Shown one piece after another: positions 28,736-39,602 of a stretch of 64,000 nucleotides of DNA. The DNA is from Pseudomonadota bacterium. GTDB taxonomy: Bacteria; Myxococcota_A; UBA9042. The DNA lies in assembly GCA_005792545.1 (NCBI GenBank), contig SXRM01000037.1, positions 1,706 to 65,705 on the forward strand. Reading direction: 5' to 3'. A program made the translations under genes and the position numbers. The first letter of the stretch is position 1. Each line of letters opens with the position of its first letter. Below the pieces are notes generated by a model. That model saw nothing but the letters and a program-made list of their open reading frames with translations, had not been told where the DNA came from and ran no database searches.

Positions 28736-31156
28736 CTAATTGCTGCTCGGCTTCCAGCCTTTTTGGACCTTGCCGCTGTGGTACACCCACAGTCGCTGGT
28801 TGGCGGCGAAGGGCCCTTTGTAGGTCTTGACGTCGGCGCCGATCCAGCGGACTTCGATGCTGTCGACGCTCTCGGCGGTGCCGAGGCCAAAGTGGCAGGT
28901 CGGGCTGTCCTGGCCACCCTGCCCACCGCCACCATTGACGTAGCGCACCTGTTTCTTGCCGCCCACCGTAATCTCGACGCTGGCGCCAAGCCCCATGCGG
29001 TTGCTCTTGCCGTCTCCGACCGTGCGGACCTGCAAGAAGCCGCCTTTCTTGCTTGCGGGCAACTGGTTGCGCAACAGCTCGTTCTGGGCAATCAGCTCCA
29101 GGTCGCCGTCGTTGTCGAGGTCGGCCGACGCCAGGCCCCAACCGCCGCGCGAGGTGATGCCGGCGTGCAGGCGATCGATGCTGAAGGTGCCGTCGCCGTT
29201 GCCCCAGTAAAAGTCGGTCGGTCGGCCTTCGTAGACGGCGCTGATCGCCAGGTCCAAGTCGCCGTCCTGGTCAAAATCGCCGAGCGCAGGCACCGAGTGG
29301 GTCTCTTGATAGCGGATGCCGGCGTCGCCCATCGGGATCTCGAAGGTGCCCTGGATGTCGTTCCAGTGGCCGGGCTTGTCCTGGATCAGCACCTGAGTCT
29401 TGTTGCTGAAGTTGTAGAAGCGCGGGTGGGCAAGGTTTGCGACCACCGCGTCCAGAAGGCCGTCGCCGTTCAAGTCGCCAAACGCGGCGCCGATGCTGTG
29501 GCCAAAGTAGGTCTGGCCGCCCCAATTGGTCTTCTTGCCGGCGAGCGTGGTCCCTGCTCCATCTTCGGTAAAGGTGCCGCCGTCGTTGCGGAAATACAGG
29601 TTGCGCACCAGCACGTAGTTGTTGACGAACACGTCGACGTCGCCGTCGCGGTCGGCGTCTACGGTCAGCGCGCCGCGGCTGGGGGTCTTGTAGCCCTGCG
29701 GCCCGGGAAAGCCGTGGGTGCCCGTCCAATCCTCAAACTTGCCGCCGCCCAGGTTGTGGAACACCGTATCCTGGTAAGGCGAGTAGTCGTCCCAGCACTG
29801 AAAGCGCGACACGTACAGGTCGAGCAGGCCATCGGCGTCAAAATCGCCCCAGGCCGCGCCGGCGCTCGGCGCGTGCTTGCCCTTGCCCTTGCAGTCGTTG
29901 TAGGTCTGGTTGCCGTCGATGCCCGAGTTGGCGGTCACGTCGGCAAACTTGCCCTTGCAGTCGCCTTTCCACAGCCGGTCGGGATCGGAGTAACCCTCGA
30001 CAAACGTGAAGATATCCGGGCAGCCGTCGTTGTCGTAGTCGCCCCACACGCCACCCGACGCTGCGCCTTGCAAGCCCGAGTCGGCGGTCGCCTCGACCAG
30101 CTTGCCGTCGTCGTTGCGCCACAGCTGGGGCCCAGGCATCAGCAGGTCGTCGTCGCCATCGTTGTCAAAGTCGCCGAACGAGTGGCGGTTCGACGGCTTC
30201 TTGGGCTCGCCCTTGTCGTCCGCTGGCGTCGGCATCGGCGCAAACACCAGCTCGGCCGGCGCGGGCTCCGGCAGCGGCTCGACCCACAGGCGCACCAGAA
30301 AGTCGGTGGCGTGCGACGACGACAGCCCGTTCCAGTTGAAGTAAGACTGATTGTTGAGCGTGAAGTTCTTGACCGTCGGCAAGTTCCACGCGGAGTGGCA
30401 GCGGGCGAACGTCTCGCAGCACTTCTGCGCGTCGGTACACTCCTTGGCGATGGTGCTGTCCAGCGCGAACGCGGCCGAATTGACGCCTTCGCGCTTGTGG
30501 GCGACGTACACCAGCTGGGGTTGCTCAAAGGTCATGGGCTCCGGCAGCGCGTAGTCCAGCCAGCCGTCGCCGTTGCCGCTCGGCGCCGGGTCGCCCTTGA
30601 GGTCGCCGGGACAACGGCCGCCTGTGAAGTAGCTCTGGAACTGCCAGAAATCAAATCCGTTGTTGCTCAGGTCCGGGAACAAGCCGGCAGTCAGATCGGC
30701 GGCATCCGGCGCGGGATTGCCCGCCCAGCGAATCGAGAAACCCCAGACGCGCACCGGCTTTTCCAGGTCAAAGCGCACAGCCTCCCACAGCTGCTGATCG
30801 GCCATCTTCTTGCCGACCACATTCAGGCCTTGTTCGGGCAGCGACTTGCCAGGCTTGCCGTCGTCCCACTGAATTGTCTGCAAGCCCTTAGGGATCCAGC
30901 CGAGCGCCGTATTGCAGCCGCTCGCCGGTGGCAGGTCGGGCTTGGGGCCGTAGTCGGGTCCGGCATCCGCTGGGATTGCAGCACTGTCGGCGCCGGCATC
31001 GCCGGCAATGGCGACGTCGGCCGCAGTGTCCTGGCCAAGGCTGTCCTTGGCGACAACTGCGTCAGCCGACGCCGGGCTGGCTGGCGTCGCGGTCGAACCG
31101 CCGCAGGCCGCGCCGAGCAAACCTGGCAGCACAAGGACAAGGGCGCGCATCGACAT
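28736..31156 (-). CDS. CRTAC1/ASPIC-UnbV family FG-GAP-repeat lipoprotein
   Basis: GGAGG RBS; lipobox GAAC; seven DxDxDGxxD repeats; C-terminal HFGLG ASPIC/UnbV motif. Confidence 0.85.
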   Translation of the reverse strand: MSMRALVLVLPGLLGAACGGSTATPASPASADAVVAKDSLGQDTAADVAIAGDAGADSAAIPADAGPDYGPKPDLPPASGCNTALGWIPKGLQTIQWDDGKPGKSLPEQGLNVVGKKMADQQLWEAVRFDLEKPVRVWGFSIRWAGNPAPDAADLTAGLFPDLSNNGFDFWQFQSYFTGGRCPGDLKGDPAPSGNGDGWLDYALPEPMTFEQPQLVYVAHKREGVNSAAFALDSTIAKECTDAQKCCETFARCHSAWNLPTVKNFTLNNQSYFNWNGLSSSHATDFLVRLWVEPLPEPAPAELVFAPMPTPADDKGEPKKPSNRHSFGDFDNDGDDDLLMPGPQLWRNDDGKLVEATADSGLQGAASGGVWGDYDNDGCPDIFTFVEGYSDPDRLWKGDCKGKFADVTANSGIDGNQTYNDCKGKGKHAPSAGAAWGDFDADGLLDLYVSRFQCWDDYSPYQDTVFHNLGGGKFEDWTGTHGFPGPQGYKTPSRGALTVDADRDGDVDVFVNNYVLVRNLYFRNDGGTFTEDGAGTTLAGKKTNWGGQTYFGHSIGAAFGDLNGDGLLDAVVANLAHPRFYNFSNKTQVLIQDKPGHWNDIQGTFEIPMGDAGIRYQETHSVPALGDFDQDGDLDLAISAVYEGRPTDFYWGNGDGTFSIDRLHAGITSRGGWGLASADLDNDGDLELIAQNELLRNQLPASKKGGFLQVRTVGDGKSNRMGLGASVEITVGGKKQVRYVNGGGGQGGQDSPTCHFGLGTAESVDSIEVRWIGADVKTYKGPFAANQRLWVYHSGKVQKGWKPSSN

Positions 31157-31273
31157 GACAACCTCCATAGGCGGCTGAGCGTACGCCAAATCGGGGTTTG
31201 GAGCAAAGGGGGGCTTTGTTCAGACGCTTGAAATCACGAATGAACTACAGGTGGATTCGATCGCCCCAGGCGG

Positions 31274-32176
31274 CTACCAGCGCCAGCCAATGCCGCCGCG
31301 CCAGGTCGCCAACAGGTCCATGGTCAACGCGACCGCATAGTGCAGGGCCACGCCGAGCCAGACGCTGCCGTGACGTAGCGCCAACCAGCCGAGCACGCTG
31401 CCGGCCACAATTGCGCCCAAAGTCTCCGCCAGGGGCTTGCCAAAGTGCGCGATAACGTACGGCACCAGCATCCACGCCAGCGCATACGCGCCCCAGTCGC
31501 GGTGCAGGCCAAAAGCAATCCAGCCGCGCCAGAAGCACTCGCCGCTGACGAATACCAGCACGTAGAGCGCCTGATAGGTCGCAAACTCGAGGACTTGCAG
31601 GGTATTGGCGCTATCGAGCAGCGCCCGCGCCAGCGGGTATTTGGCCTGAAACGCCGCGGTGCCGCTGGCGTACCACACGGCCGGCAGCACCAGCAGGTAG
31701 AGCCCCAAGTACACTGGCCATGTGCGTTGCCCGCTCGGGGCGCGCCGCCAGCCCAGATCGCGCATCGTCAACCCGAGCCGATCCGCCAGCAACCACGGCA
31801 CGCCGAGCCTGAAGATCGCGGCAGCGATCGAGAAGTAGGCAAAGCCCCACACCGGCCGCAGCCAACCCACTGCGGGCAAGCGCGGTTGCCACCACCTTTC
31901 CCAGGCATCCAGGCGACCGAGGTACCAGAAGGCACACAGCGCGACGGCAGTGCCAGCCAGCACCCAGGCCGTACGGTCCGTCTGGCCGCGCCGCCACGCT
32001 TGAGGGTCGGCTAGGCGCAACAGCAGCGCCAGCGCCGCCCAGCCGCAAGCCAGATGGACGATGAACCACGCCTCCGGCTCCACCACACCGGCATGGCGCG
32101 CCAGCACCTGCCCAGCCAGCAGAGCGGCAGCGGCAATCAGCACCCACGGCTTGCCCGGCAGCGCCGCGGACGGCAT
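31274..32176 (-). CDS. CPBP-family intramembrane glutamic protease
   Basis: GECFWRGW, HFGKPLAE, LHYAVA; multi-TM. Confidence 0.8.
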   Translation of the reverse strand: MPSAALPGKPWVLIAAAALLAGQVLARHAGVVEPEAWFIVHLACGWAALALLLRLADPQAWRRGQTDRTAWVLAGTAVALCAFWYLGRLDAWERWWQPRLPAVGWLRPVWGFAYFSIAAAIFRLGVPWLLADRLGLTMRDLGWRRAPSGQRTWPVYLGLYLLVLPAVWYASGTAAFQAKYPLARALLDSANTLQVLEFATYQALYVLVFVSGECFWRGWIAFGLHRDWGAYALAWMLVPYVIAHFGKPLAETLGAIVAGSVLGWLALRHGSVWLGVALHYAVALTMDLLATWRGGIGWRW

Positions 32177-32179
32177 GGA

Positions 32180-34978
32180 CTACCGCCGCAAGAACGTGGG
32201 CACCGGCGCGTGGCGCTCGTTGGCCGGCTTCTTGCGCAGGTTGAGCGTCAGGCGCGCGGGGTTGTAGACCAGCAGGTTGTGGGTCGTCGGCGTGGTGATG
32301 ATGAACTGGGCGCGGGTCACCCCAAGAAAACGCGCCACCTCGTCGATGCGCTCGACCGACAGGTGCGCGAATGGTTCGTCGAGGATGAAAAAGCCCGTTG
32401 CGTCGCCGCCCTCTTCCATGGTCAACGCCATCAGTAGGATAAGCGACGACACCACGCTCTGACCGCCCGACAGCTTGGGGTCGTCGACCGCCACCGGCTT
32501 CTTGCCGTCAAAACCGATGCGGATTTCGAGCCCTGCCTTGCCGAGCAGATCGTCGTTGTCCTCGCGCAGCACCTCGGCATTGGGCACTTTGACCTGCACT
32601 TCGACGCGGCACAGCTCTCCCAAGCGCAAGACATTGTTCCGGTATCTGCGAATGGTCTCGTGCACGACGCGCCGGTAGGCCTGGCGGGCCAGCGCCAGCT
32701 CTTCGTTGCCCTGGGCCAGCTGATTGCGGTGGCGGGCCATGGCGCGCTCGTGCTCCGCAAGCTCAGCTGCCGCGCGCTCAAAGATGTGGACGCTGCGCGG
32801 ATCGCGGTTGCCGTCGAACTGAGCGATGCGATCGCGCACGAGGTTCAGGCGCTCGATGAGCTGCAGCTCTGGCGGCAGCAACTCTTGCGCAGCCGGGGTC
32901 TGCAGCTCGGGCGGCACGGTCGCCGCCAGTTCGGTGCGCTCGGCCTCCAGGCGCTGCAACTTGGCTGTGTAGGCGCCGAGCTGGGTGCGCGCGCGGTCGC
33001 GTTCCAGGATCGCCTCGCGATTGCGGTACTCCAGCTGCGAAATGCGCCGCTCGCGGTCCACCACCTCGACGTTGGCAAGATCGATCTGGTTGAGCAACGC
33101 GAACAGCCGCTCAGAAGCACCCCGGCGCGCATCGACTAGCTCAGCGATGCGGCCAGGCAGCGCATCCGGGTCGCCGATGCGCGCGAGCAGCTTGCCGCGC
33201 ACCTTGTCCGCGACCAGCAGTTCGTCGATTTGCGCAATACGCCGCGACGTGGGCCCGAGCGACGCTTCCAGGCTGTCGCGCAGTTGGCGCAAACGACCGA
33301 GCTCAGACTCGACTTGGGCTTTGCGATGGCCACCGGACGACGCGCCGCAGTACAGGTCGGTGACACCCACGAAAATGCCGCCGCGGGTGTCTTGCCGATA
33401 GCCGTCGGGCGTGATGCTGGTCTGCCGCCCCAGCTTGTGCCCCTCTTCGACGCTGTGCACCAGCTGCACCGACGCCAGCTGCTGCACGATGTGCTCGGGC
33501 AGACGGGCGTCTGTGATTTGCACCGCCGACAGCGCTGAGCCTTGGCGCACCGGATGCCGGCGCGAACTCTCCCATGCGGTCACATAGTTGCGGTACTTGT
33601 TGCGCTGACCGATCTTGCGGCCGGACAGCTCGTCTTTGGCGTCGACCAGGATCGTGAAGCGGGCGTTGCCAAGCACGGACTCGACGGCGACCTGCCACTC
33701 TGGCTCAGTGATTTCAAGCACGTCGGCGACGATCGAGGCTTCAATGCCCTCGCGCCGCAATTCGCGCAGCATGGCCGCCGTGGCCTCCGGCGGCGCACGC
33801 CGAGACCGGCCACCGCCGTCCAGCTGACTCAATTCGCTGCGAAGCTCTGAGATCTGCGCGATGACCCGGGTCAGATCGCCGCGGGTACTCGACTCGCCGG
33901 CCACCAGCCGCGTGCGCTCTTCCGCCAGCCGTTCGGCCTCGCCCGCCGCATCCAGTGCACCCTGCGACCGCAGCTCTTCGAGCTCCGCCTCCATGCGCTT
34001 GAGGTCGCGATGCCTGCCGTCCAGACCTTCCTTTTCGGTCATCAGCGCCTGGTAGCCGCGCTTGGTTGCTTCGATGCCCTCGCGCAGCTCAGACACCGCC
34101 ACACGCAAGGCGTCGGCTTCACCGGTAAAGCCGGTCAGCACGTCGTCCGCCGCCTTGAGCACCGAGCCGGCGCGGGCGAGATCGCTGTGTACGTCGTCGA
34201 CGTCGCGACAGAGGCCCTTGAGACGCGACGCCGGCAGCGAAACGTCGCGCAGTTGCCGCTCTTGGGCTTCCAGGCCGCTCAGCTCTTTGTACTGCTCGGC
34301 GTCGCGGCGCAGGACATCGACGTGCAGCGCCTGCACCTGCAAGCGGCGCTCCATATCCTCGAGATCGCGTTGGCCGGCCAGGTACTCGCTGCGGGCGTCG
34401 GCGTAGCGCTCCAGAACTTGCTTGTCGCCTTGCAGCTCCAGCACGTATTCGAGCAACTGCTCTGGCGTACGCTGCGCCAGCTTGTGGGTCTCGCCCTGCT
34501 CCAGCGCTAGAACCTTGAGCAGCGTGCGCGGCACCTGCGCCTCTTCAAGCGCCTTGGCGTACTCCTCCGGGCCCATGCCGTGCGCCGCGATCTTGAGCGT
34601 GTCGATCGGGGCGTCGCCGGCCACGATGTGGTAGCGACGTTGCCACTGGCCTTGCTTGCGTTCGAGCACGCAGGCGATGGTGGCCTGGTCGTCAAATACG
34701 CCGCGCGACGAAAACGGTCGCTTGCCCGTGCCCTTGCGCAGCGGGTTGGTCACCACCGCTTTGACGATCGCTACGCCGGTGTCGTCGCGCAGGTACTGCG
34801 GCATCTTGCGCGACGTCGACAGCTTGCGCGCGCCCAGCAACACCCGCACGGCGTCGAGCACGGTGGTCTTGCCGCTGCCATTGGGCCCGGCGATGAGCAC
34901 TACCTGCTCGTCGAGCGGCATGCGCACGTGGGACCAGTAGTCCCAATTCATCAATTCCAACCACTTGAACGTGAACAT
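32180..34978 (-). CDS. SMC-family ATPase, MksB/JetC-like
   Basis: Walker A GPNGSGKT, Q-loop LEQGE, coiled coils, hinge ADVLEITEPEWQVAVESVLGNARFTILV...ITPDG, LSGGQ, Walker B/D-loop FILDEPFAHL; 932 aa. Confidence 0.85.
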   Translation of the reverse strand: MFTFKWLELMNWDYWSHVRMPLDEQVVLIAGPNGSGKTTVLDAVRVLLGARKLSTSRKMPQYLRDDTGVAIVKAVVTNPLRKGTGKRPFSSRGVFDDQATIACVLERKQGQWQRRYHIVAGDAPIDTLKIAAHGMGPEEYAKALEEAQVPRTLLKVLALEQGETHKLAQRTPEQLLEYVLELQGDKQVLERYADARSEYLAGQRDLEDMERRLQVQALHVDVLRRDAEQYKELSGLEAQERQLRDVSLPASRLKGLCRDVDDVHSDLARAGSVLKAADDVLTGFTGEADALRVAVSELREGIEATKRGYQALMTEKEGLDGRHRDLKRMEAELEELRSQGALDAAGEAERLAEERTRLVAGESSTRGDLTRVIAQISELRSELSQLDGGGRSRRAPPEATAAMLRELRREGIEASIVADVLEITEPEWQVAVESVLGNARFTILVDAKDELSGRKIGQRNKYRNYVTAWESSRRHPVRQGSALSAVQITDARLPEHIVQQLASVQLVHSVEEGHKLGRQTSITPDGYRQDTRGGIFVGVTDLYCGASSGGHRKAQVESELGRLRQLRDSLEASLGPTSRRIAQIDELLVADKVRGKLLARIGDPDALPGRIAELVDARRGASERLFALLNQIDLANVEVVDRERRISQLEYRNREAILERDRARTQLGAYTAKLQRLEAERTELAATVPPELQTPAAQELLPPELQLIERLNLVRDRIAQFDGNRDPRSVHIFERAAAELAEHERAMARHRNQLAQGNEELALARQAYRRVVHETIRRYRNNVLRLGELCRVEVQVKVPNAEVLREDNDDLLGKAGLEIRIGFDGKKPVAVDDPKLSGGQSVVSSLILLMALTMEEGGDATGFFILDEPFAHLSVERIDEVARFLGVTRAQFIITTPTTHNLLVYNPARLTLNLRKKPANERHAPVPTFLRR

Positions 34979-35040
34979 CGCGCGCTGTCGTCACCCTTCG
35001 AACGGCCACCGCCGTCCAATCCATGCCCGATCGTGCTTGC

Positions 35041-35787
35041 CTATTCGCCAAACTCGTCGCCGTCGACTTCGCTGGCCTCGTCCGCGCCTTCAGCCACGTC
35101 GGCCACGCCTTTGTCCAGGACGTCCCACAACACCGAGTCGCGCAGCTTTTGGGCCATCTGTACGCCGTCGATCAGCAGGTCGAGCAGCGGCCCTTCGCGC
35201 AGGTTGCCGGCGCGATCCTCGCGCACGAAACCCGCCGATTTGAGCTGGCCGACGTAGCGGGCAAACGCCGTCTTGCCGAACTTGCGGCCAAACTCGGCGT
35301 ACAGCTGATCGCGGCTGATCGAAGGCGCAGGGCCTGGCTCTGCCGGAGCCGAAGCTGCGGCGCCAGTGCCATCCGCAATCGGCGCCGGCGCCAGGTGATC
35401 CGCGGGATCCAAGCGTTTGGGCAGCACGAGCTTTGCCCACAGCACCACCAACAGCGCCACCGCGCCGCGTGGCAACCGCGCGTTGGTGGCCCAGTCGAAA
35501 GCAATGTCGCCTTCGATTGCGCGCTTGAGCCGCGCGGCAAAGTAATCCGACGTGAAGGACTCAACGAGCTCAAGGCCCACCATGCCCAAACGCCGGCCGA
35601 CCATCGCCCGCAGGTCGTCGTCGAGCAGCAAGTCGCGGTACGCGCGCTTGGGCACCCAGCGTTCGATGAGCAGGCGCGAGCAGATTTCCTCTGCGCGCGT
35701 TTCGCGTTCAGCGTCGTGGCGCGCGGAGCCCCCGTCGTTGCGCAGCTGTGCCGCCGGTGCTGCCGTGGTCTGATCGCGGTCTTCCAT
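35041..35787 (-). CDS. KITE (MksE/MukE/JetB-like) tandem winged-helix protein
   Basis: Directly upstream of the SMC gene; ALLVVLWAKL helix and GPLLDL motif; about 250 aa; family call partly from context. Confidence 0.6.
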   Translation of the reverse strand: MEDRDQTTAAPAAQLRNDGGSARHDAERETRAEEICSRLLIERWVPKRAYRDLLLDDDLRAMVGRRLGMVGLELVESFTSDYFAARLKRAIEGDIAFDWATNARLPRGAVALLVVLWAKLVLPKRLDPADHLAPAPIADGTGAAASAPAEPGPAPSISRDQLYAEFGRKFGKTAFARYVGQLKSAGFVREDRAGNLREGPLLDLLIDGVQMAQKLRDSVLWDVLDKGVADVAEGADEASEVDGDEFGE

Positions 35788-35971: not shown

Positions 35972-36541
35972 TCAGGCAGGCGCAGCCTGTCGCCAGTCGG
36001 CCGCGTCAGCACGCGCGCGTTCTGCCAGTTTGATCAATGCCCCGACATCAAGCGACGGGCGAAGCGCTGCCCGCGCCGCCAATTGCGCCCGCGCCTGCCC
36101 TTCGCCTAGCCGCGCCGCCTGCTCGCGCGCTTCGGCCGCGCGCAGGGCGGACTGCAGTCGCTCAATCGTCCGGTACGCCTCCGCGTAATCGGACTCCAGA
36201 TTTGCGCGGCGCTGTTCGTGCGCCGGGTCTGCGCGCGGCGGCTCCGGCGGCGCTGCCAGGGCCTGACGCGCCCCAGCAATAGTCATGCCCTTGTCGTACA
36301 GCAGACTGCGGATCCGCAGCAGGCGCTCGGCGGCCGGCCTGCCATACAGCAGGCGGTTGGTCGAACTGCGCTCTGGGCGCACCGAGCCGAACTGGTCGGT
36401 CCAAAACCGCACAACGTGGGTCTGTACGCCAAGCAGGTCGGCCAATTCGCCAATCCGCAACAGGGTCTTGTCCGGCCACTGGTCGAGCGGCACTGCGGGG
36501 CGCACGCTCGAATCGGGTGGGGCGGCTGGTTTGCTGGGCAT
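35972..36541 (-). CDS. MerR-family HTH regulator (ihfA-linked type)
   Basis: LRIGELADLLGVQTHVVRFW...RLLY...LYDKGMTIAGAR; follows ihfA. Confidence 0.88.
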   Translation of the reverse strand: MPSKPAAPPDSSVRPAVPLDQWPDKTLLRIGELADLLGVQTHVVRFWTDQFGSVRPERSSTNRLLYGRPAAERLLRIRSLLYDKGMTIAGARQALAAPPEPPRADPAHEQRRANLESDYAEAYRTIERLQSALRAAEAREQAARLGEGQARAQLAARAALRPSLDVGALIKLAERARADAADWRQAAPA

Positions 36542-36900: not shown

Positions 36901-36942
36901 CAAAAACGCCGCGACCCGGCAGCCAAACAACTGCCGGGTCGC
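36901..36942 (-). terminator. intrinsic terminator after ihfA
   Basis: Perfect 12 bp stem GCGACCCGGCAG/CTGCCGGGTCGC (36911-36942) followed on minus strand by GGCGTTTTT. Confidence 0.72.
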
Positions 36943-36966
36943 GATCGCGAACGTTGTGCTCTGCGA

Positions 36967-37248
36967 CTACTTGCCGTTGAGCTGGCTCTTGAGCACCTGC
37001 GACGGCTTGAAGGTCAGCACGCGACGCGCCGAGATCTCGATCGGCTGGCGGGTCTGCGGATTGCGGCCCATGCGCGCTTTCTTCTCGCGAACCACGAAGT
37101 TGCCAAAGCCGGAGATCTTGACTTTCTCCTGCTTGGCCAGCGTGTCCTTGAGGGTGTCAAACACGTGCTCGACCAACTCGGCGGCTTCGCGCTTGGAGTA
37201 TCCGCCCAGCTTGTCATACACAGCTTCGATGATGTCGGCCTTGGTCAT
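36967..37248 (-). CDS. ihfA: integration host factor subunit alpha
   Basis: MTKADII, KISGFGNF, GRNPQT, ISARRVLTFKPSQ; AGGAG RBS. Confidence 0.93.
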   Translation of the reverse strand: MTKADIIEAVYDKLGGYSKREAAELVEHVFDTLKDTLAKQEKVKISGFGNFVVREKKARMGRNPQTRQPIEISARRVLTFKPSQVLKSQLNGK

Positions 37249-37466
37249 GGTCTGGCTCCTGTCCAATCAATGCGGCACTGGTTGCGCCTGGGCCACTGCC
37301 GGAAAATCCGGGCGCGCGGCGTGGTGGCTAGCCCCGCTGGTTGTGCGTCTGCCGGCGATGGCGAGACGCGAGATTCTGCCTCTGGTTCGCGAAGCGCTCG
37401 CACCGTGCGAGCGACCGCCGGGGCGTGGGCCAATGCCCAGGCTGCACCCCGCGCGACGACAACCGG

Positions 37467-37829
37467 CTACTTGCCGGCGGCCGCCTGCTTGATCTGGTTG
37501 AACACCACTTTGAACGCCTCGAGATCGGCAAGTGCCAGATCGGCCAGCGCCTTACGGTCAAGCTGCACGCCGGACTTGTTCAGCCACCCGGCAAACACCG
37601 AGTACTTGCTGCCCAGCGAGCGCACGGCGGCGTTGATGCGCACGATCCACAGCGAGCGGAATTCGCGCTTCTTGCGGCGACGCTCGCGAAACGCCAGCTT
37701 GAGGCCACGGTAGACCTGCTCGCGGGCAGTGCGGAACAGCCGCGAGCGCGCTGCGCGCATGCCCTTGGCCATCTTGAGAACTTTCTTGTGACGGGCGCGG
37801 GTTTTGGTCCCGCCCTTGACGCGTGGCAT
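37467..37829 (-). CDS. rplT: 50S ribosomal protein L20
   Basis: MPRVKGG, RRRKKREFRSLWIVRINAA, LDRKALADLA. Confidence 0.97.
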   Translation of the reverse strand: MPRVKGGTKTRARHKKVLKMAKGMRAARSRLFRTAREQVYRGLKLAFRERRRKKREFRSLWIVRINAAVRSLGSKYSVFAGWLNKSGVQLDRKALADLALADLEAFKVVFNQIKQAAAGK

Positions 37830-38252
37830 GTCGAACTCCATTGCCGCGACGCGCATCTGGTCGGATGCGTGCGTGCGGCCCTATCGCCAACGCCGTCGGT
37901 CGCGTCCAAGCCAGCCTTTGGCCAGGCACGCGCCGGCAGTTGGTGCGCGGCGAAATCCATGAAAATGCGGGCTGACCGGGACACCCCAGCCCACCCCGAC
38001 CATCGGCCACCGGGGGTACGCCCCGGAAGCCTCCCGACCGCGCGCGTGGCCCGATCGGCAATACACCGTGTCCGGCACAACTCAACCCCGTGTTTTCCAC
38101 GGGAAATCGCAGCTTGCGGCGGAGCGCGCCCGCCAGCGGTTGCCGGCGAGGTCGCGGAGTTTACAGCGTTCACGATCCGTTGCCAAGGCCTCCAGCCGGG
38201 CCGTCGCGAAATTCCTCGCGCCGCTGCGGTGGAAAACCTGAGCAACCGGCCG

Positions 38253-38450
38253 CTAGCCGTACGGCATCTGCTCGTGAACCATCCGCTGCAAACCGGCGGG
38301 CACCACGCCCGGCTCGCGCATCTGGCGCTTGCGCTTGGTGGTCTTGCTGCTCAGCAAGTGGCGCTTACCGGCCTTGCCGCACTTGATGCGGCCGTTGGCC
38401 ATGATCTTGAAGCGCTTGGCGGCGGCGCGGCGCGTCTTCTGCTTTGGCAT
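38253..38450 (-). CDS. rpmI: 50S ribosomal protein L35
   Basis: [15 protein letters not shown]...GKRHLL..KTTKRKR. Confidence 0.96.
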
Positions 38451-38624
38451 GTCGTCTCCTGGTCATGCGCCCCCATTGAGGGCGCGGGCTGGGGGCGGCC
38501 TACGCGGTCGCGCCCGTCGGGGCAAGCGGCGAATGCCGCCCATCTTGGTTGTCCGTGTTGAGCAAACCGGGCGACCGAGCGGGCGCCCACCTCATCGGCG
38601 CCGCAACCGCAACGCCTGGAAAAG

Positions 38625-39296
38625 CTACGAGACCTGGCCGCCCGAGCGCCGCGTCGTGACCGTGGGCCCCGTCGGCACAATGGGCGCTGGCGCCGCCGGG
38701 GTCTGCGCGGGCGCAGGCGCCTCCGCCGGCTTGATCGGCGCACCGCCGCGCCTGGGGTTGAGCATCATCGACATGTTGCGGCCCTCGACCTTGGGCAGCA
38801 CGTCGACCGCCGACACGTCGGCCAGCGCAGTCGCGATTTCCATCAGCCGCTCTTGCTGCGTACGGGCGTAAGCGATCTCGCGACCGCGGAACATCACCGT
38901 CACCTTGACGCGATCGCCGTCCTGCAGGAAACGGCGAGCCTGGTTCATCTTGGTCTGGAAGTCGTGATCATCGGTCTTGGGCCGGAATTTGACCTCTTTG
39001 ACTTCGATATGCGTCGAGGTTCGCTTGGCTTCGCCCGCTTTCTTCTTCTGCAAGTACTTGAACTTGCCGTAGGCCATGAGCTTGCAAACCGGCGGCCGGG
39101 CGGCAGCGGCACCCTCGACGAGATCGACGCCGGCCTCGTGCGCCATGCGCATGGCTTCTTCGATGGGCACGACCCCCAGCTGGTCGCCGTCAACGCCGAC
39201 GAGGCGCACCTCTGGTACGCGAATGCGGTGATTGACGCGCGGTTCACGCGCGCGAGCGTCTTCTTGCTGCCTCGAGGGGATGCTTGGTGCGACCAT
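38625..39296 (-). CDS. infC: translation initiation factor IF-3 with Pro/Ala-rich C-terminal extension
   Basis: RVNHRIRVPEVRLV, PPVCKLMAYGKFKY, KEVKFRPKTDDHD, FRGRE; start codon uncertain. Confidence 0.95.
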   Translation of the reverse strand: MVAPSIPSRQQEDARAREPRVNHRIRVPEVRLVGVDGDQLGVVPIEEAMRMAHEAGVDLVEGAAAARPPVCKLMAYGKFKYLQKKKAGEAKRTSTHIEVKEVKFRPKTDDHDFQTKMNQARRFLQDGDRVKVTVMFRGREIAYARTQQERLMEIATALADVSAVDVLPKVEGRNMSMMLNPRRGGAPIKPAEAPAPAQTPAAPAPIVPTGPTVTTRRSGGQVS

Positions 39297-39602
39297 TCGG
39301 GGTGAATTTCCTCCATTGTGTGCGGTCAGCCGCGTCGGACACCGAGGCGTCTTCCGAGCCGGACTGCGGAGCACGCCAACCGGCGATCGCTCTTACAGTT
39401 CAAGCTGTTCCGGAGTTCGCCGTCCGCTGTGGCGCTGCCGCCGGCGCTTTTTGCGCCGTTCTACCAACTCGACCCACGCGTTGGCGGCGCGGATTGTGCA
39501 GCAAAACCGTGGACTGTTCAAGGGCGACGTGCGACTGCCGGCGAGTCGGTGCGGCTCCGAGCTTTCGGCGAGCAATACCGGCTTCGGTCTGCAGCAGGGG
39601 GG

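Follow-up and report, generated by a model that had tools for sequence, protein, structure and literature searches.

A predicted short-armed, nuclease-free MksBEF-type condensin with an unlinked kleisin gene in freshwater Myxococcota

We analysed a window of 64,000 nt from contig SXRM01000037.1, part of a genome that is ~78% complete, in which the gene of an SMC ATPase (B) stands next to that of a putative KITE partner (E). With a probability of roughly 0.7, the E-B pair and a kleisin (F) encoded elsewhere in the genome make up a nuclease-free, short-armed condensin of the MksBEF type, probably acting on the chromosome. The sequences place these proteins in a predicted divergent short-armed lineage, with B of ~930, E of ~230–250 and F of ~420–460 amino acids. 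The apparent anomaly of an SMC-KITE pair lacking its kleisin is thereby removed, the kleisin gene appearing merely to have moved. Wadjet systems (JetABCD, synonymous with MksBEFG and EptABCD) act against plasmids; the chromosome is organised and segregated by MukBEF in E. coli, where it is the sole SMC complex of its host, and by MksBEF in Pseudomonas.

The SMC-KITE pair and its locus

The B protein carries the motifs of an SMC ATPase, namely a Walker A (GPNGSGKT, residues 31–38), a Q-loop (159–162), the signature LSGGQ (836–840) and a Walker B (863–869), borne by two head segments (~1–165 and ~800–932). Two helical arms of ~230 residues each, seen as helix-rich stretches in the composition profile (~165–400 and ~565–790), flank a hinge region (~400–560) with a hinge-like block, AVESVLG (431–437); the hinge model PF06470 matched at E = 7.5e-4, its 20.3 bits lying below the 22.5-bit cut-off. 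B matched SMC_N of Pfam (3.7e-17), and its best match in the defence library was JetC (PADLOC JetC1, PDLC00519, 3e-30). It stayed under the cut-offs of the Smc model TIGR02168 (75 against 567 bits) and of MukB_N, PF04310 (17.8 against 23 bits). B is thus predicted to be an SMC protein with an ABC-type head, long antiparallel arms and a hinge, like the SMC subunits of the Mks/Wadjet group.

A profile of the B family, searched against the PDB, matched Smc3, Smc2 and Smc5, JetC chains and Rad50 heads among others, MukB not being among the best 60 matches. We also compared head domains in a tree of 29 rows covering Smc, JetC, MukB and the present family, built without JetC types II and III and without the MksB of Pseudomonas. 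The family formed a separate clade, about equally far from Smc and from JetC-I/MukB and not nested inside the latter, with MukB on a long branch of its own. The deep forks of this tree are open and its long branches meet, so that the SMC phylogeny proposed in the first-pass annotation of the window gave a clade for the family but did not decide its placement inside the Wadjet group.

E consists of two winged-helix domains (~18–131 and ~159–234) joined by a Pro/Ala-rich linker and followed by an acidic C-terminal tail. The AlphaFold2 model (pLDDT 80.5) folded into two winged-helix halves, and its top Foldseek matches were JetB chains (8dk1_E/F and 8as8_C; E = 4e-5, probability 1.0), followed by chains of ScpB, Nse3/MAGE and MukE. 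The sequence itself had no match in Pfam, PADLOC (none at E ≤ 1) or NCBIfam, and its alignment profile retrieved generic winged-helix proteins only from the PDB sequences. In all 263 homologues of E that we collected, an SMC gene is adjacent. The predicted fold supports the assignment of this 248-aa protein as a tandem winged-helix KITE of the MukE/JetB type.

Features of the E-B locus (positions in the 64,000-nt window)
Feature	Position	Strand	Basis or context
CPBP (Rce1-like) intramembrane protease gene	31274..32176	-	PF02517, 5.6e-8
MksB/JetC-like SMC ATPase (B), 932 aa	32180..34978	-	SMC_N, PADLOC JetC1, motifs
MksE/JetB-like KITE (E), 248 aa	35041..35787	-	AlphaFold2 + Foldseek
MerR-family regulator	35972..36541	-	PF13411, 4.2e-17
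Intrinsic-terminator-like hairpin, 16-bp stem + T-run, 3' of IHF gene	36909..36944	-	consensus scan only
IHF/HU-type nucleoid protein gene, 99 aa, Bac_DNA_binding	36967..37266	-	PF00216, 6.5e-32
L20 gene (rplT)	37467-37856		in infC-rpmI-rplT-ihf cluster
L35 gene (rpmI)	38253-38450		in infC-rpmI-rplT-ihf cluster
IF3 gene (infC)	38625-39374		in infC-rpmI-rplT-ihf cluster

The IHF/HU gene is the last of the infC-rpmI-rplT-ihf cluster and precedes MerR, E and B. The MerR gene ends 184 nt upstream of E, 62 nt separate E from B, and the CPBP gene starts 3 nt past the SMC stop codon; the CPBP protein also matched NF040590 (1e-17), under the cut-off of that model. The predicted terminator after the IHF gene suggests that MerR-E-B, possibly with CPBP, forms a transcription unit of its own. 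Since MerR stands directly upstream of the pair across the family of the host (f1, freshwater Myxococcota), it may be co-transcribed with E-B or regulate it. The first-pass annotation had described the open reading frames of the locus accurately: a complete 932-aa SMC ATPase with a hinge following a winged-helix partner, the 'ihfA-linked MerR', the CPBP protease at its short distance, and a KITE recognised by eye that the JetB match now supports. It had also reported that no kleisin or nuclease gene is adjacent, which is correct for the locus and does not extend to the rest of the genome, where a kleisin homologue was found.

The kleisin gene and the split of the operon

In the distant relatives Jeongeupia, Chitinimonas and Lentisphaeria, a gene of ~400–430 codons lies directly upstream of E-B. 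The host genome encodes a homologue of these upstream proteins on another contig (protein P0222, 463 aa, G000:C364:3060-4451, minus strand; E = 2e-28 and 1e-22, 30% identity over 381 residues). Its model (pLDDT 73.5) runs from a winged helix at the N terminus through a helical bundle and a linker to a second winged helix at the C terminus, and its best PDB matches were full-length MukF (9gm7_C and 7nz2_C1; E = 1e-3, probability ~0.9) and then JetA (9qe1_E). The fold scores are weak (TM ~0.17–0.25), as expected of a flexible multi-domain protein. No usable profile match was obtained with Pfam JetA/DUF3375, PADLOC JetA/JetB, NCBIfam or MukF, the sole trace being a faint JetA match of the Lentisphaeria protein (E = 0.025), and alignments of the F candidates retrieved generic winged-helix proteins only from the PDB sequences. 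Because sequence profiles gave nothing usable, E and F were classified on predicted folds and gene neighbourhood. The model with its weak fold scores and the gene position in relatives give moderate support to a MukF/JetA-type kleisin encoded away from E-B.

Of 41 related genomes, 26 carry the SMC gene; 24 of these encode the kleisin homologue as well, and no genome without the SMC gene has it. One of the two exceptions (G026) has as its sole match a distant, 27%-identical, Wadjet-like protein; in the other (G032), the B gene is cut by the contig end. Against the nearest relative (dS ~0.85), dN/dS was 0.053 for B, 0.081 for F and 0.124 for E, F being under purifying selection. A 393-aa ORF (P0223) adjacent to the kleisin gene was considered as a fourth partner and rejected, as it is Arg-rich and reads antisense to a CoA-transferase III gene (PF02515, 6e-98); antisense reading also accounts for the 'CoAT' tblastn matches next to the kleisin gene of other genera.

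We surveyed gene order at 80 loci from named genomes, 18 in f1 and 62 outside it. A contiguous, co-directional F-E-B arrangement was found at all 62 non-f1 loci (other Myxococcota, Chromobacterium, Jeongeupia, Dyella), and F was upstream of E-B at none of the 18 f1 loci; F and E-B always lie on separate contigs in f1 and are contiguous in families f6, f9 and f12. Within f1, the pair sits in a conserved infC-rpmI-rplT-ihf-merR-E-B cluster. The series rplT-IHF-MerR-E-B, or all of it that the contig holds, was recovered at 16 of the 18 loci, and the IHF-MerR-E-B order at 16–17, with MerR proteins 36–72% identical. The exceptions are L051, where the 2.2 kb before E-B match none of the cluster genes, and L069, whose contig starts inside E. 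Among the loci compared, the split of the operon is therefore limited to the f1 family. The CPBP gene follows the SMC gene only in G003, among ten SMC loci compared.

These data bear on two other accounts of the locus. That it represents the decay of a Wadjet (JetABCD) island, no longer functional against plasmids and deprived of jetA and jetD, could be argued from the presence of only two of the four genes, from the JetC match of the SMC protein and from the complete accessory Wadjet loci of a few relatives. We regard it as extremely improbable: both genes are intact in more than 20 f1 genomes (58–92% identity) at the same housekeeping position, dN/dS values are 0.05–0.12, and the kleisin gene is retained at a separate site, its occurrence following that of the pair. 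The sharing by every f1 relative of one two-gene arrangement with intact genes, at a position where decay would have left relatives with the full jetABCD, speaks for a stable rearrangement. A two-subunit SMC-KITE machine working without a kleisin, or with a new, unrelated partner such as MerR or CPBP, would fit the missing kleisin gene at the locus and the constant proximity of MerR, and is very improbable given the F homologue under purifying selection in the host and in nearly all SMC-carrying relatives, the ancestral F-E-B order and the restriction of the CPBP linkage to a single genus, that of the host. The 'minimal SMC-KITE variant with a new partner' of the first-pass annotation accordingly fails, as a candidate for the classical third subunit exists. 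Its other proposal, a 'split or domesticated condensin used for chromosome organisation', holds for the split, on the strength of the unlinked F, its co-occurrence and its selection, and stays conjectural for the chromosomal role. The checks it had suggested gave, with PADLOC, a match for the SMC protein and none at E ≤ 1 for the other two subunits, and, genome-wide, the F gene by homology, with neither ScpA nor JetD found.

Nuclease, Smc-ScpAB and the probable role of the complex

JetD was sought in the 78%-complete host genome with PF09983, with the PADLOC model JetD1 and by tblastn with the JetD of Pseudogulbenkiania, and was not found; JetD1 likewise had no match in 20 of 23 f1 relatives that were sampled and carry the pair. 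Where JetD occurs in relatives, it lies beside separate Wadjet-like loci only. A JetD gene directly follows B in Pseudogulbenkiania, Aquitalea, Crenobacter and Silvimonas (PF09664, 1.4e-7; JetD1, 6e-17), and two more distantly related loci within the same class (G026, contig C33; G023, contig C65) likewise have JetD behind them.

Searches for Smc (TIGR02168), ScpA and ScpB detected none of these proteins in the 41 class genomes or in the 78%-complete host genome; Smc is present in 116 of the 149 high-quality genomes of our phylum sample. In that sample, the short-B family occurs in f1 only (11 of 12 genomes) and in no genome outside the class. To judge from these searches, the host genome yielded no SMC complex besides E-B-F. 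A JetD or Smc gene could sit in its unassembled part, against which the near-complete relatives argue. The system is absent from 15 of the 41 class genomes. A replacement SMC was sought in these with SMC_N, the family profile and the JetC model, and the matches were limited to proteins of the size of RecF or RecN, apart from a few long ORFs with weak scores. The class can thus live without the system, and this makes an essential replacement for Smc less plausible.

An involvement in defence against plasmids or phages, by means of an unlinked or unrecognised nuclease or by silencing or excluding foreign DNA without cutting it, is unlikely, though it draws on the place of the family within the Wadjet group and on the JetD genes that follow B in the four genera and in the two more distant relatives. 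Against it stand the failure to find a JetD-like gene in the host and in most f1 carriers, the housekeeping position outside any defence island, and hosts in which no other SMC complex was found. A role in DNA repair or recombination, comparable to the tasks of Smc5/6, RecN or Rad50 rather than global chromosome folding, would agree with the Smc5 and Rad50 heads among the profile matches, and the third of the Smc-less class that lacks the system would suggest a non-essential, conditional function. We consider it quite improbable: the partners are of the MukEF/JetAB type, not subunits of repair complexes, and RecN-like and RecF-like genes are separately present in class genomes without the system. 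With no JetD found and Smc-ScpAB undetected throughout the host class, the most likely reading is a complex that serves chromosome organisation or segregation rather than plasmid cleavage.

By inference from the solved MukBEF and JetABC structures, B would dimerise through its hinge and its ATPase heads would be bridged by dimeric F carrying E dimers; such a B2-F2-E4 assembly would entrap DNA and extrude loops with ATP. The ancestral operon was presumably F-E-B, to which the JetD/MksG nuclease would have been added in some lineages. It would have been split in the common ancestor of f1, F becoming a stand-alone gene and E-B coming to stand behind infC-rpmI-rplT-ihf-merR. A more speculative scenario, which we put forward tentatively and hold to be possible but somewhat doubtful, is that the class lost Smc-ScpAB as a whole and that a Wadjet-derived complex, having shed its nuclease, became the resident condensin in part of it, a MukBEF-like take-over independent of that in Enterobacteria. 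The break-up of the operon would have wired E-B into the ihf-merR nucleoid and translation cluster and left the kleisin under separate control, so that kleisin supply would offer a means of controlling assembly.

Relation to known SMC complexes

The proposed complex resembles MksBEF of Pseudomonas aeruginosa, the MksB complex of Mycobacterium smegmatis and MukBEF of E. coli in its SMC ATPase, double-winged-helix KITE and MukF/JetA-type kleisin. It shares with the nuclease-free MksBEF and MukBEF the ancestral order F-E-B, the lack of MksG/JetD and a housekeeping chromosomal context, and with MukBEF the property of being the only SMC complex found in its host. It differs from them in that B, at ~930 residues, is shorter than E. 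coli MukB (1,486) and the JetC models (~1,100–1,200), in that E and F escape Pfam and PADLOC, in a head that lies at similar distances from Smc and from JetC/MukB, and in the unlinked kleisin gene of f1. None of the profiles defining MukBEF (PF04310, MukE, MukF) recognised it. A co-directional F-E-B operon, usual in the Mks/Wadjet group and not a mechanistic requirement, is lacking in the host genome.

With Wadjet, the complex shares its architecture, the JetB and JetC matches of its KITE and SMC subunits, and short-B family members in which JetD follows B. Since no JetD was found in the host or in most of f1, the defining DNA-cleaving step of Wadjet is missing; the locus lies outside any defence island, and E and F were recognised by none of the profiles for Wadjet types I–III (PF18982/DUF3375, DUF4194, PADLOC JetA/JetB). 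Smc-ScpAB likewise has an SMC ATPase whose hinge bears the SMC-type motif and, in ScpB, a subunit of the KITE fold, and a chromosome-organising role is presumed for the present complex as well; unlike Smc-ScpAB, the present system has a MukF/JetA-like rather than ScpA-like kleisin and shorter arms (932 against ~1,180 aa), and it shows neither a score at the TIGR02168 cut-off nor ScpA and ScpB.

The short-B family is already represented in the published table of the Wadjet group, where Pseudogulbenkiania sp. NH8B is entered as 'FEBG' with a 938-aa B (PMC7617805, Data S1). MukBEF and several other members of that group also lack MksG/JetD (PMC7617805), and MksBEF is scattered across the bacterial tree (bioRxiv 10.1101/2020.05.18.101659). 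Our literature searches returned no paper on Myxococcota without Smc and none on the short-B lineage beyond the supplementary table entry. Surveys that demand contiguous F-E-B matches, as that of PMC7617805 did (methods), will overlook the f1 lineage. The apparent class-wide lack of Smc, ScpA and ScpB is noteworthy, as is the third of the class without any detectable SMC complex. The family offers a natural series, from members that keep the JetD nuclease (Pseudogulbenkiania, Aquitalea), through members without nuclease that coexist with Smc (Jeongeupia, Chitinimonas), to the present Myxococcota, without nuclease in hosts without Smc-ScpAB. This series could address how a plasmid-cutting SMC machine becomes a chromosome condensin, the same question as that posed by the origin of MukBEF.

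The SMC and KITE genes of the window

The 932-aa protein encoded by B, the SMC gene, is by its sequence features an intact SMC-family ATPase. It carries a Walker A motif (GPNGSGKT, residues 31-38), a Q-loop (159-162), an ABC signature (LSGGQ, 836-840), a Walker B motif (FFILDEP, 863-869) and a hinge-type block (AVESVLG, 431-437), which is connected with the heads on each side by a stretch of ~230 residues that is poor in proline and glycine and favours helix. Pfam recognised SMC_N, with an SMC_hinge match below threshold; PADLOC matched JetC1 (3e-30), and NCBIfam SMC_prok_B scored 75 bits against a cut-off of 567 bits. When a profile of 27 family members was compared with the PDB, it retrieved the heads of eukaryotic Smc3, Smc2 and Smc5 (best 5e-33) as well as JetC (4e-18), and MukB was missing from the best 60 matches. 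The 248-aa protein encoded by E matched no sequence profile at all. Its AlphaFold2 model, built from a 43-sequence alignment (pLDDT 80.5), has two winged-helix halves, and Foldseek placed JetB at the top (8dk1_E/F and 8as8_C; E-value 4e-5, probability 1.0), followed by ScpB, MAGE/Nse3 and MukE, which are known KITE proteins. On this modelled fold, E is a KITE.

Both genes lie on the minus strand in the order infC, rpmI, rplT, IHF/HU, MerR, E, B, CPBP. The first-pass annotation had described a KITE-SMC pair in a housekeeping context with neither kleisin nor nuclease next to it, an observation that is correct for this locus: the gaps that we obtained (MerR-E 184 nt, E-B 62 nt, B-CPBP 3 nt) agree with it. 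The G+C content of the window is ~67%, without a compositional break. In many bacteria, pheS-pheT sit between infC-rpmI-rplT and the IHF/HU gene; here, infC-rpmI-rplT leads directly to the latter (36967-39374, minus strand). Downstream of CPBP lies a gene for an 817-aa FG-GAP/ASPIC-UnbV repeat protein (28736-31189, minus strand), which is kept in the nearest relative.

Features of the E-B locus in the window
Feature	Position	Strand	Match or remark
infC	38625-39374	-	IF3_N / IF3_C
rpmI	38253-38450	-	L35
rplT	37467-37856	-	L20
IHF/HU-type gene	36967-37266	-	PF00216 6.5e-32
Terminator-like hairpin, strong, 16-bp stem	36909-36944	-	3' of IHF gene
MerR-family gene	35972-36541	-	PF13411 4e-17
E, 248-aa gene	35041-35787	-	without family match
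B, 932-aa gene	32180-34978	-	SMC_N 3.7e-17
CPBP/Rce1-like protease gene	31274-32176	-	PF02517 5.6e-8

The unlinked kleisin gene and the split operon

The missing kleisin, a puzzle in the first-pass annotation, is explained by a candidate kleisin gene, F, elsewhere in the genome. In Jeongeupia sp. HS-3, Chitinimonas lacunae and a Lentisphaeria MAG, distant E-B homologues are preceded by a gene of ~400-430 aa without a Pfam family. Searching the window's own assembly (G000) with these upstream proteins yielded one homologue, of 463 aa, on another contig (G000:C364:3060-4451, minus strand; E-values 2e-28 and 1e-22; 30% identity with the Jeongeupia protein over 381 residues). Its AlphaFold2 model (pLDDT 73.5) starts with a winged helix at the N terminus, continues with a long bundle of helices and a disordered linker, and ends in a C-terminal winged-helix/beta domain; the best Foldseek matches were full-length MukF (9gm7_C, 7nz2_C1; E-value ~1e-3, probability ~0.9), with JetA of Wadjet II and further MukF fragments next in rank, and TM scores were low, as expected of a flexible multi-domain protein. 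The modelled fold thus argues moderately for a kleisin, and we give most weight to gene position and to co-occurrence. F is flanked on C364 by a divergent CoA-transferase III gene on one side and by a NamZ gene downstream. A 393-aa Arg-rich ORF beside it (G000:C364:4458-5639, minus strand) was rejected as an antisense artefact of the CoA-transferase III gene; such long spurious frames are typical of this 67% G+C genome.

Among 41 related genomes drawn from the same genus, family or class, the SMC gene was found in 26 and a kleisin homologue in 24, and no genome had a kleisin match without having the SMC gene as well; in the window's own family (f1), the four members that are without one of the two are without both. 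Two genomes account for the difference: in G026, the sole kleisin match is a distant copy, 27% identical, that belongs to a separate Wadjet-like locus; G032 has no kleisin match and a B gene truncated by the contig end. Within f1, F and E-B are always on separate contigs (for example C10 and C2 in G013, C20 and C36 in G018); in G029, G036 and G039, from three other families of the class, the three genes are contiguous. Using the KITE alignment to scan the species genomes of GTDB, we kept 80 of more than 557 loci. All 62 kept loci outside f1 show contiguous F-E-B, in other Myxococcota MAGs and in Chromobacterium, Aquitalea, Pseudogulbenkiania, Jeongeupia, Chitinimonas, Deefgea, Silvimonas, Dyella, Aquimonas and Janthinobacterium, and an upstream F is absent at all 18 kept f1 loci. 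Sixteen of these 18 have rplT-IHF-MerR-E-B, or whatever part of it the contig covers; E-B alone was seen at L069, where the contig begins within E, and at L051, where 2.2 kb upstream gave no match to the rplT, IHF or MerR genes. The infC-rpmI-rplT-ihf-merR-E-B cluster is conserved down to 58% SMC identity. The stand-alone F has a conserved site of its own in five other f1 genera (L038, 2709-9286, and matching parts of L039, L040, L041 and L043), with a mevalonate-pathway operon on the divergent side (FMN-dependent type-2 IPP isomerase-like gene, GHMP kinase, diphosphomevalonate decarboxylase) and a TMEM260-like glycosyltransferase gene on the convergent side; this site is rearranged again in the window's own genus. 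Relative to the nearest relative (dS ~0.85), dN/dS is 0.053 for the SMC, 0.124 for the KITE and 0.081 for the kleisin gene. Thus, contig separation, synteny, co-occurrence and dN/dS indicate that the operon split is old and probably a single event, and that all three genes are maintained.

JetD homologues and placement among known systems

Neither JetD_C (PF09983) nor a homologue of the JetD of Pseudogulbenkiania was found in the window's own genome. In Pseudogulbenkiania ferrooxidans, B is followed by a gene for a 431-aa protein matching DUF2399 (1.4e-7) and PADLOC JetD1 (6e-17). Searching with this protein, we found JetD homologues after B in Pseudogulbenkiania, Aquitalea, Crenobacter and Silvimonas (L101, 9622-10917; L079, L080, L081, L096, L105, L114, L123, L124, L126) and none after B in Jeongeupia, Chitinimonas, Deefgea, Chromobacterium, Dyella or any Myxococcota locus. 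Hence, at one fixed chromosomal site (obgE-...-rlmL), the nuclease is present in some genera and absent from others close to them. No JetD was detected in 20 of the 23 sampled f1 relatives with the E-B pair, and JetD matches in the class are confined to the vicinity of Wadjet-like loci that are separate and more distant (G026 C33, G023 C65, G001 C208). In two of these (G026 C33, L044, 3925-9877; G023 C65, L045, 2318-8623), a distant F-E-B-like locus whose B is ~27% identical to that of the window is followed by the JetD match. The two loci seem to represent a sister lineage that carries the nuclease; in G023, B appears frameshifted or split.

We assign the family to the MukBEF-like 'Mks/Wadjet group', in the definition of PMC7617805, on the basis of its F-E-B(-G) gene order (G, the JetD/MksG nuclease), JetB-like KITE, MukF/JetA-like kleisin and, in some members, JetD homologue. 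In Data S1 of that survey, Pseudogulbenkiania sp. NH8B is entered as 'FEBG', its four genes having 431, 252, 938 and 408 codons, and this entry clearly belongs to the lineage of the window's system; none of the other carrier genera that we looked for is named in the accessible portions of the article. The survey demanded consecutive co-directional matches to F, E and B, and the split myxobacterial loci were therefore undetectable by it. In a carefully searched head-domain tree of 29 rows, the family forms a compact separate clade with a Myxococcota subclade supported at 99/98. Path lengths from the family to Smc (~3.3) and to JetC-I/MukB (~4.8-5.2) are roughly equal, in a tree where long branches meet and deep forks are poorly resolved; we therefore describe the family as a divergent, short-armed lineage of the Mks/Wadjet group and leave the exact branching unclaimed. 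Most probably, then, the window's genes belong to an MksBEF-type condensin without a nuclease, from a lineage already present, uncommented, in a published table. The novelty is modest: a conserved operon split, a fixed ihf-merR-E-B cluster, and carriers from a class whose 41 sampled genomes yielded no Smc, ScpA or ScpB.

By analogy with the solved MukBEF and JetABC structures, B would dimerise through its hinge, and a dimeric F kleisin would bridge the ATPase heads at neck and cap, bearing the E dimers. ATP binding would then open a gate, so that DNA could be trapped and reeled into loops. Since JetD is undetected, the DNA would be left uncut and the output would be chromosome folding or segregation. 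We speculate that, with E-B placed after ihf-merR and F under a promoter of its own, kleisin supply could set the amount of complete complex.

Smc-ScpAB in the host genomes

TIGR02168 found no better match than the 932-aa gene in the window's own genome, where ScpA (PF02616) and ScpB (PF04079) gave nothing. The count of 0/41 for Smc (TIGR02168), ScpA and ScpB spans 13 family codes, and 33 of the 41 genomes are at least 90% complete. In a phylum sample of 150 high-quality genomes, Smc is present in 116/149; nearly all genomes that lack it belong to the window's class (Smc in 0/12 f1 genomes, 0/10 of family f7, and others), and the short-B family, the F-E-B lineage with a B of ~930 aa, occurs only in f1 (11/12) and in none outside the class. 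A reading of the short-B system as a replacement for Smc-ScpAB is tempered by 15 of the 41 class genomes, in which neither Smc, nor the short-B family, nor a JetC-like gene was found, that is, no recognisable SMC complex; the five of them that were inspected had, apart from a few weak long ORFs, just SMC_N proteins of RecF or RecN size. The class can therefore live without any recognisable SMC complex. Canonical Smc is also present in Betaproteobacteria carrying the family (Jeongeupia, Chitinimonas). In Jeongeupia sp. HS-3, a gene for a 180-aa GNAT acetyltransferase is inserted between E and B (L001, 8684-9226), and E-B gaps of ~550-600 nt suggest the same insert in other Jeongeupia and Deefgea loci (L071, L077, L097, L115).
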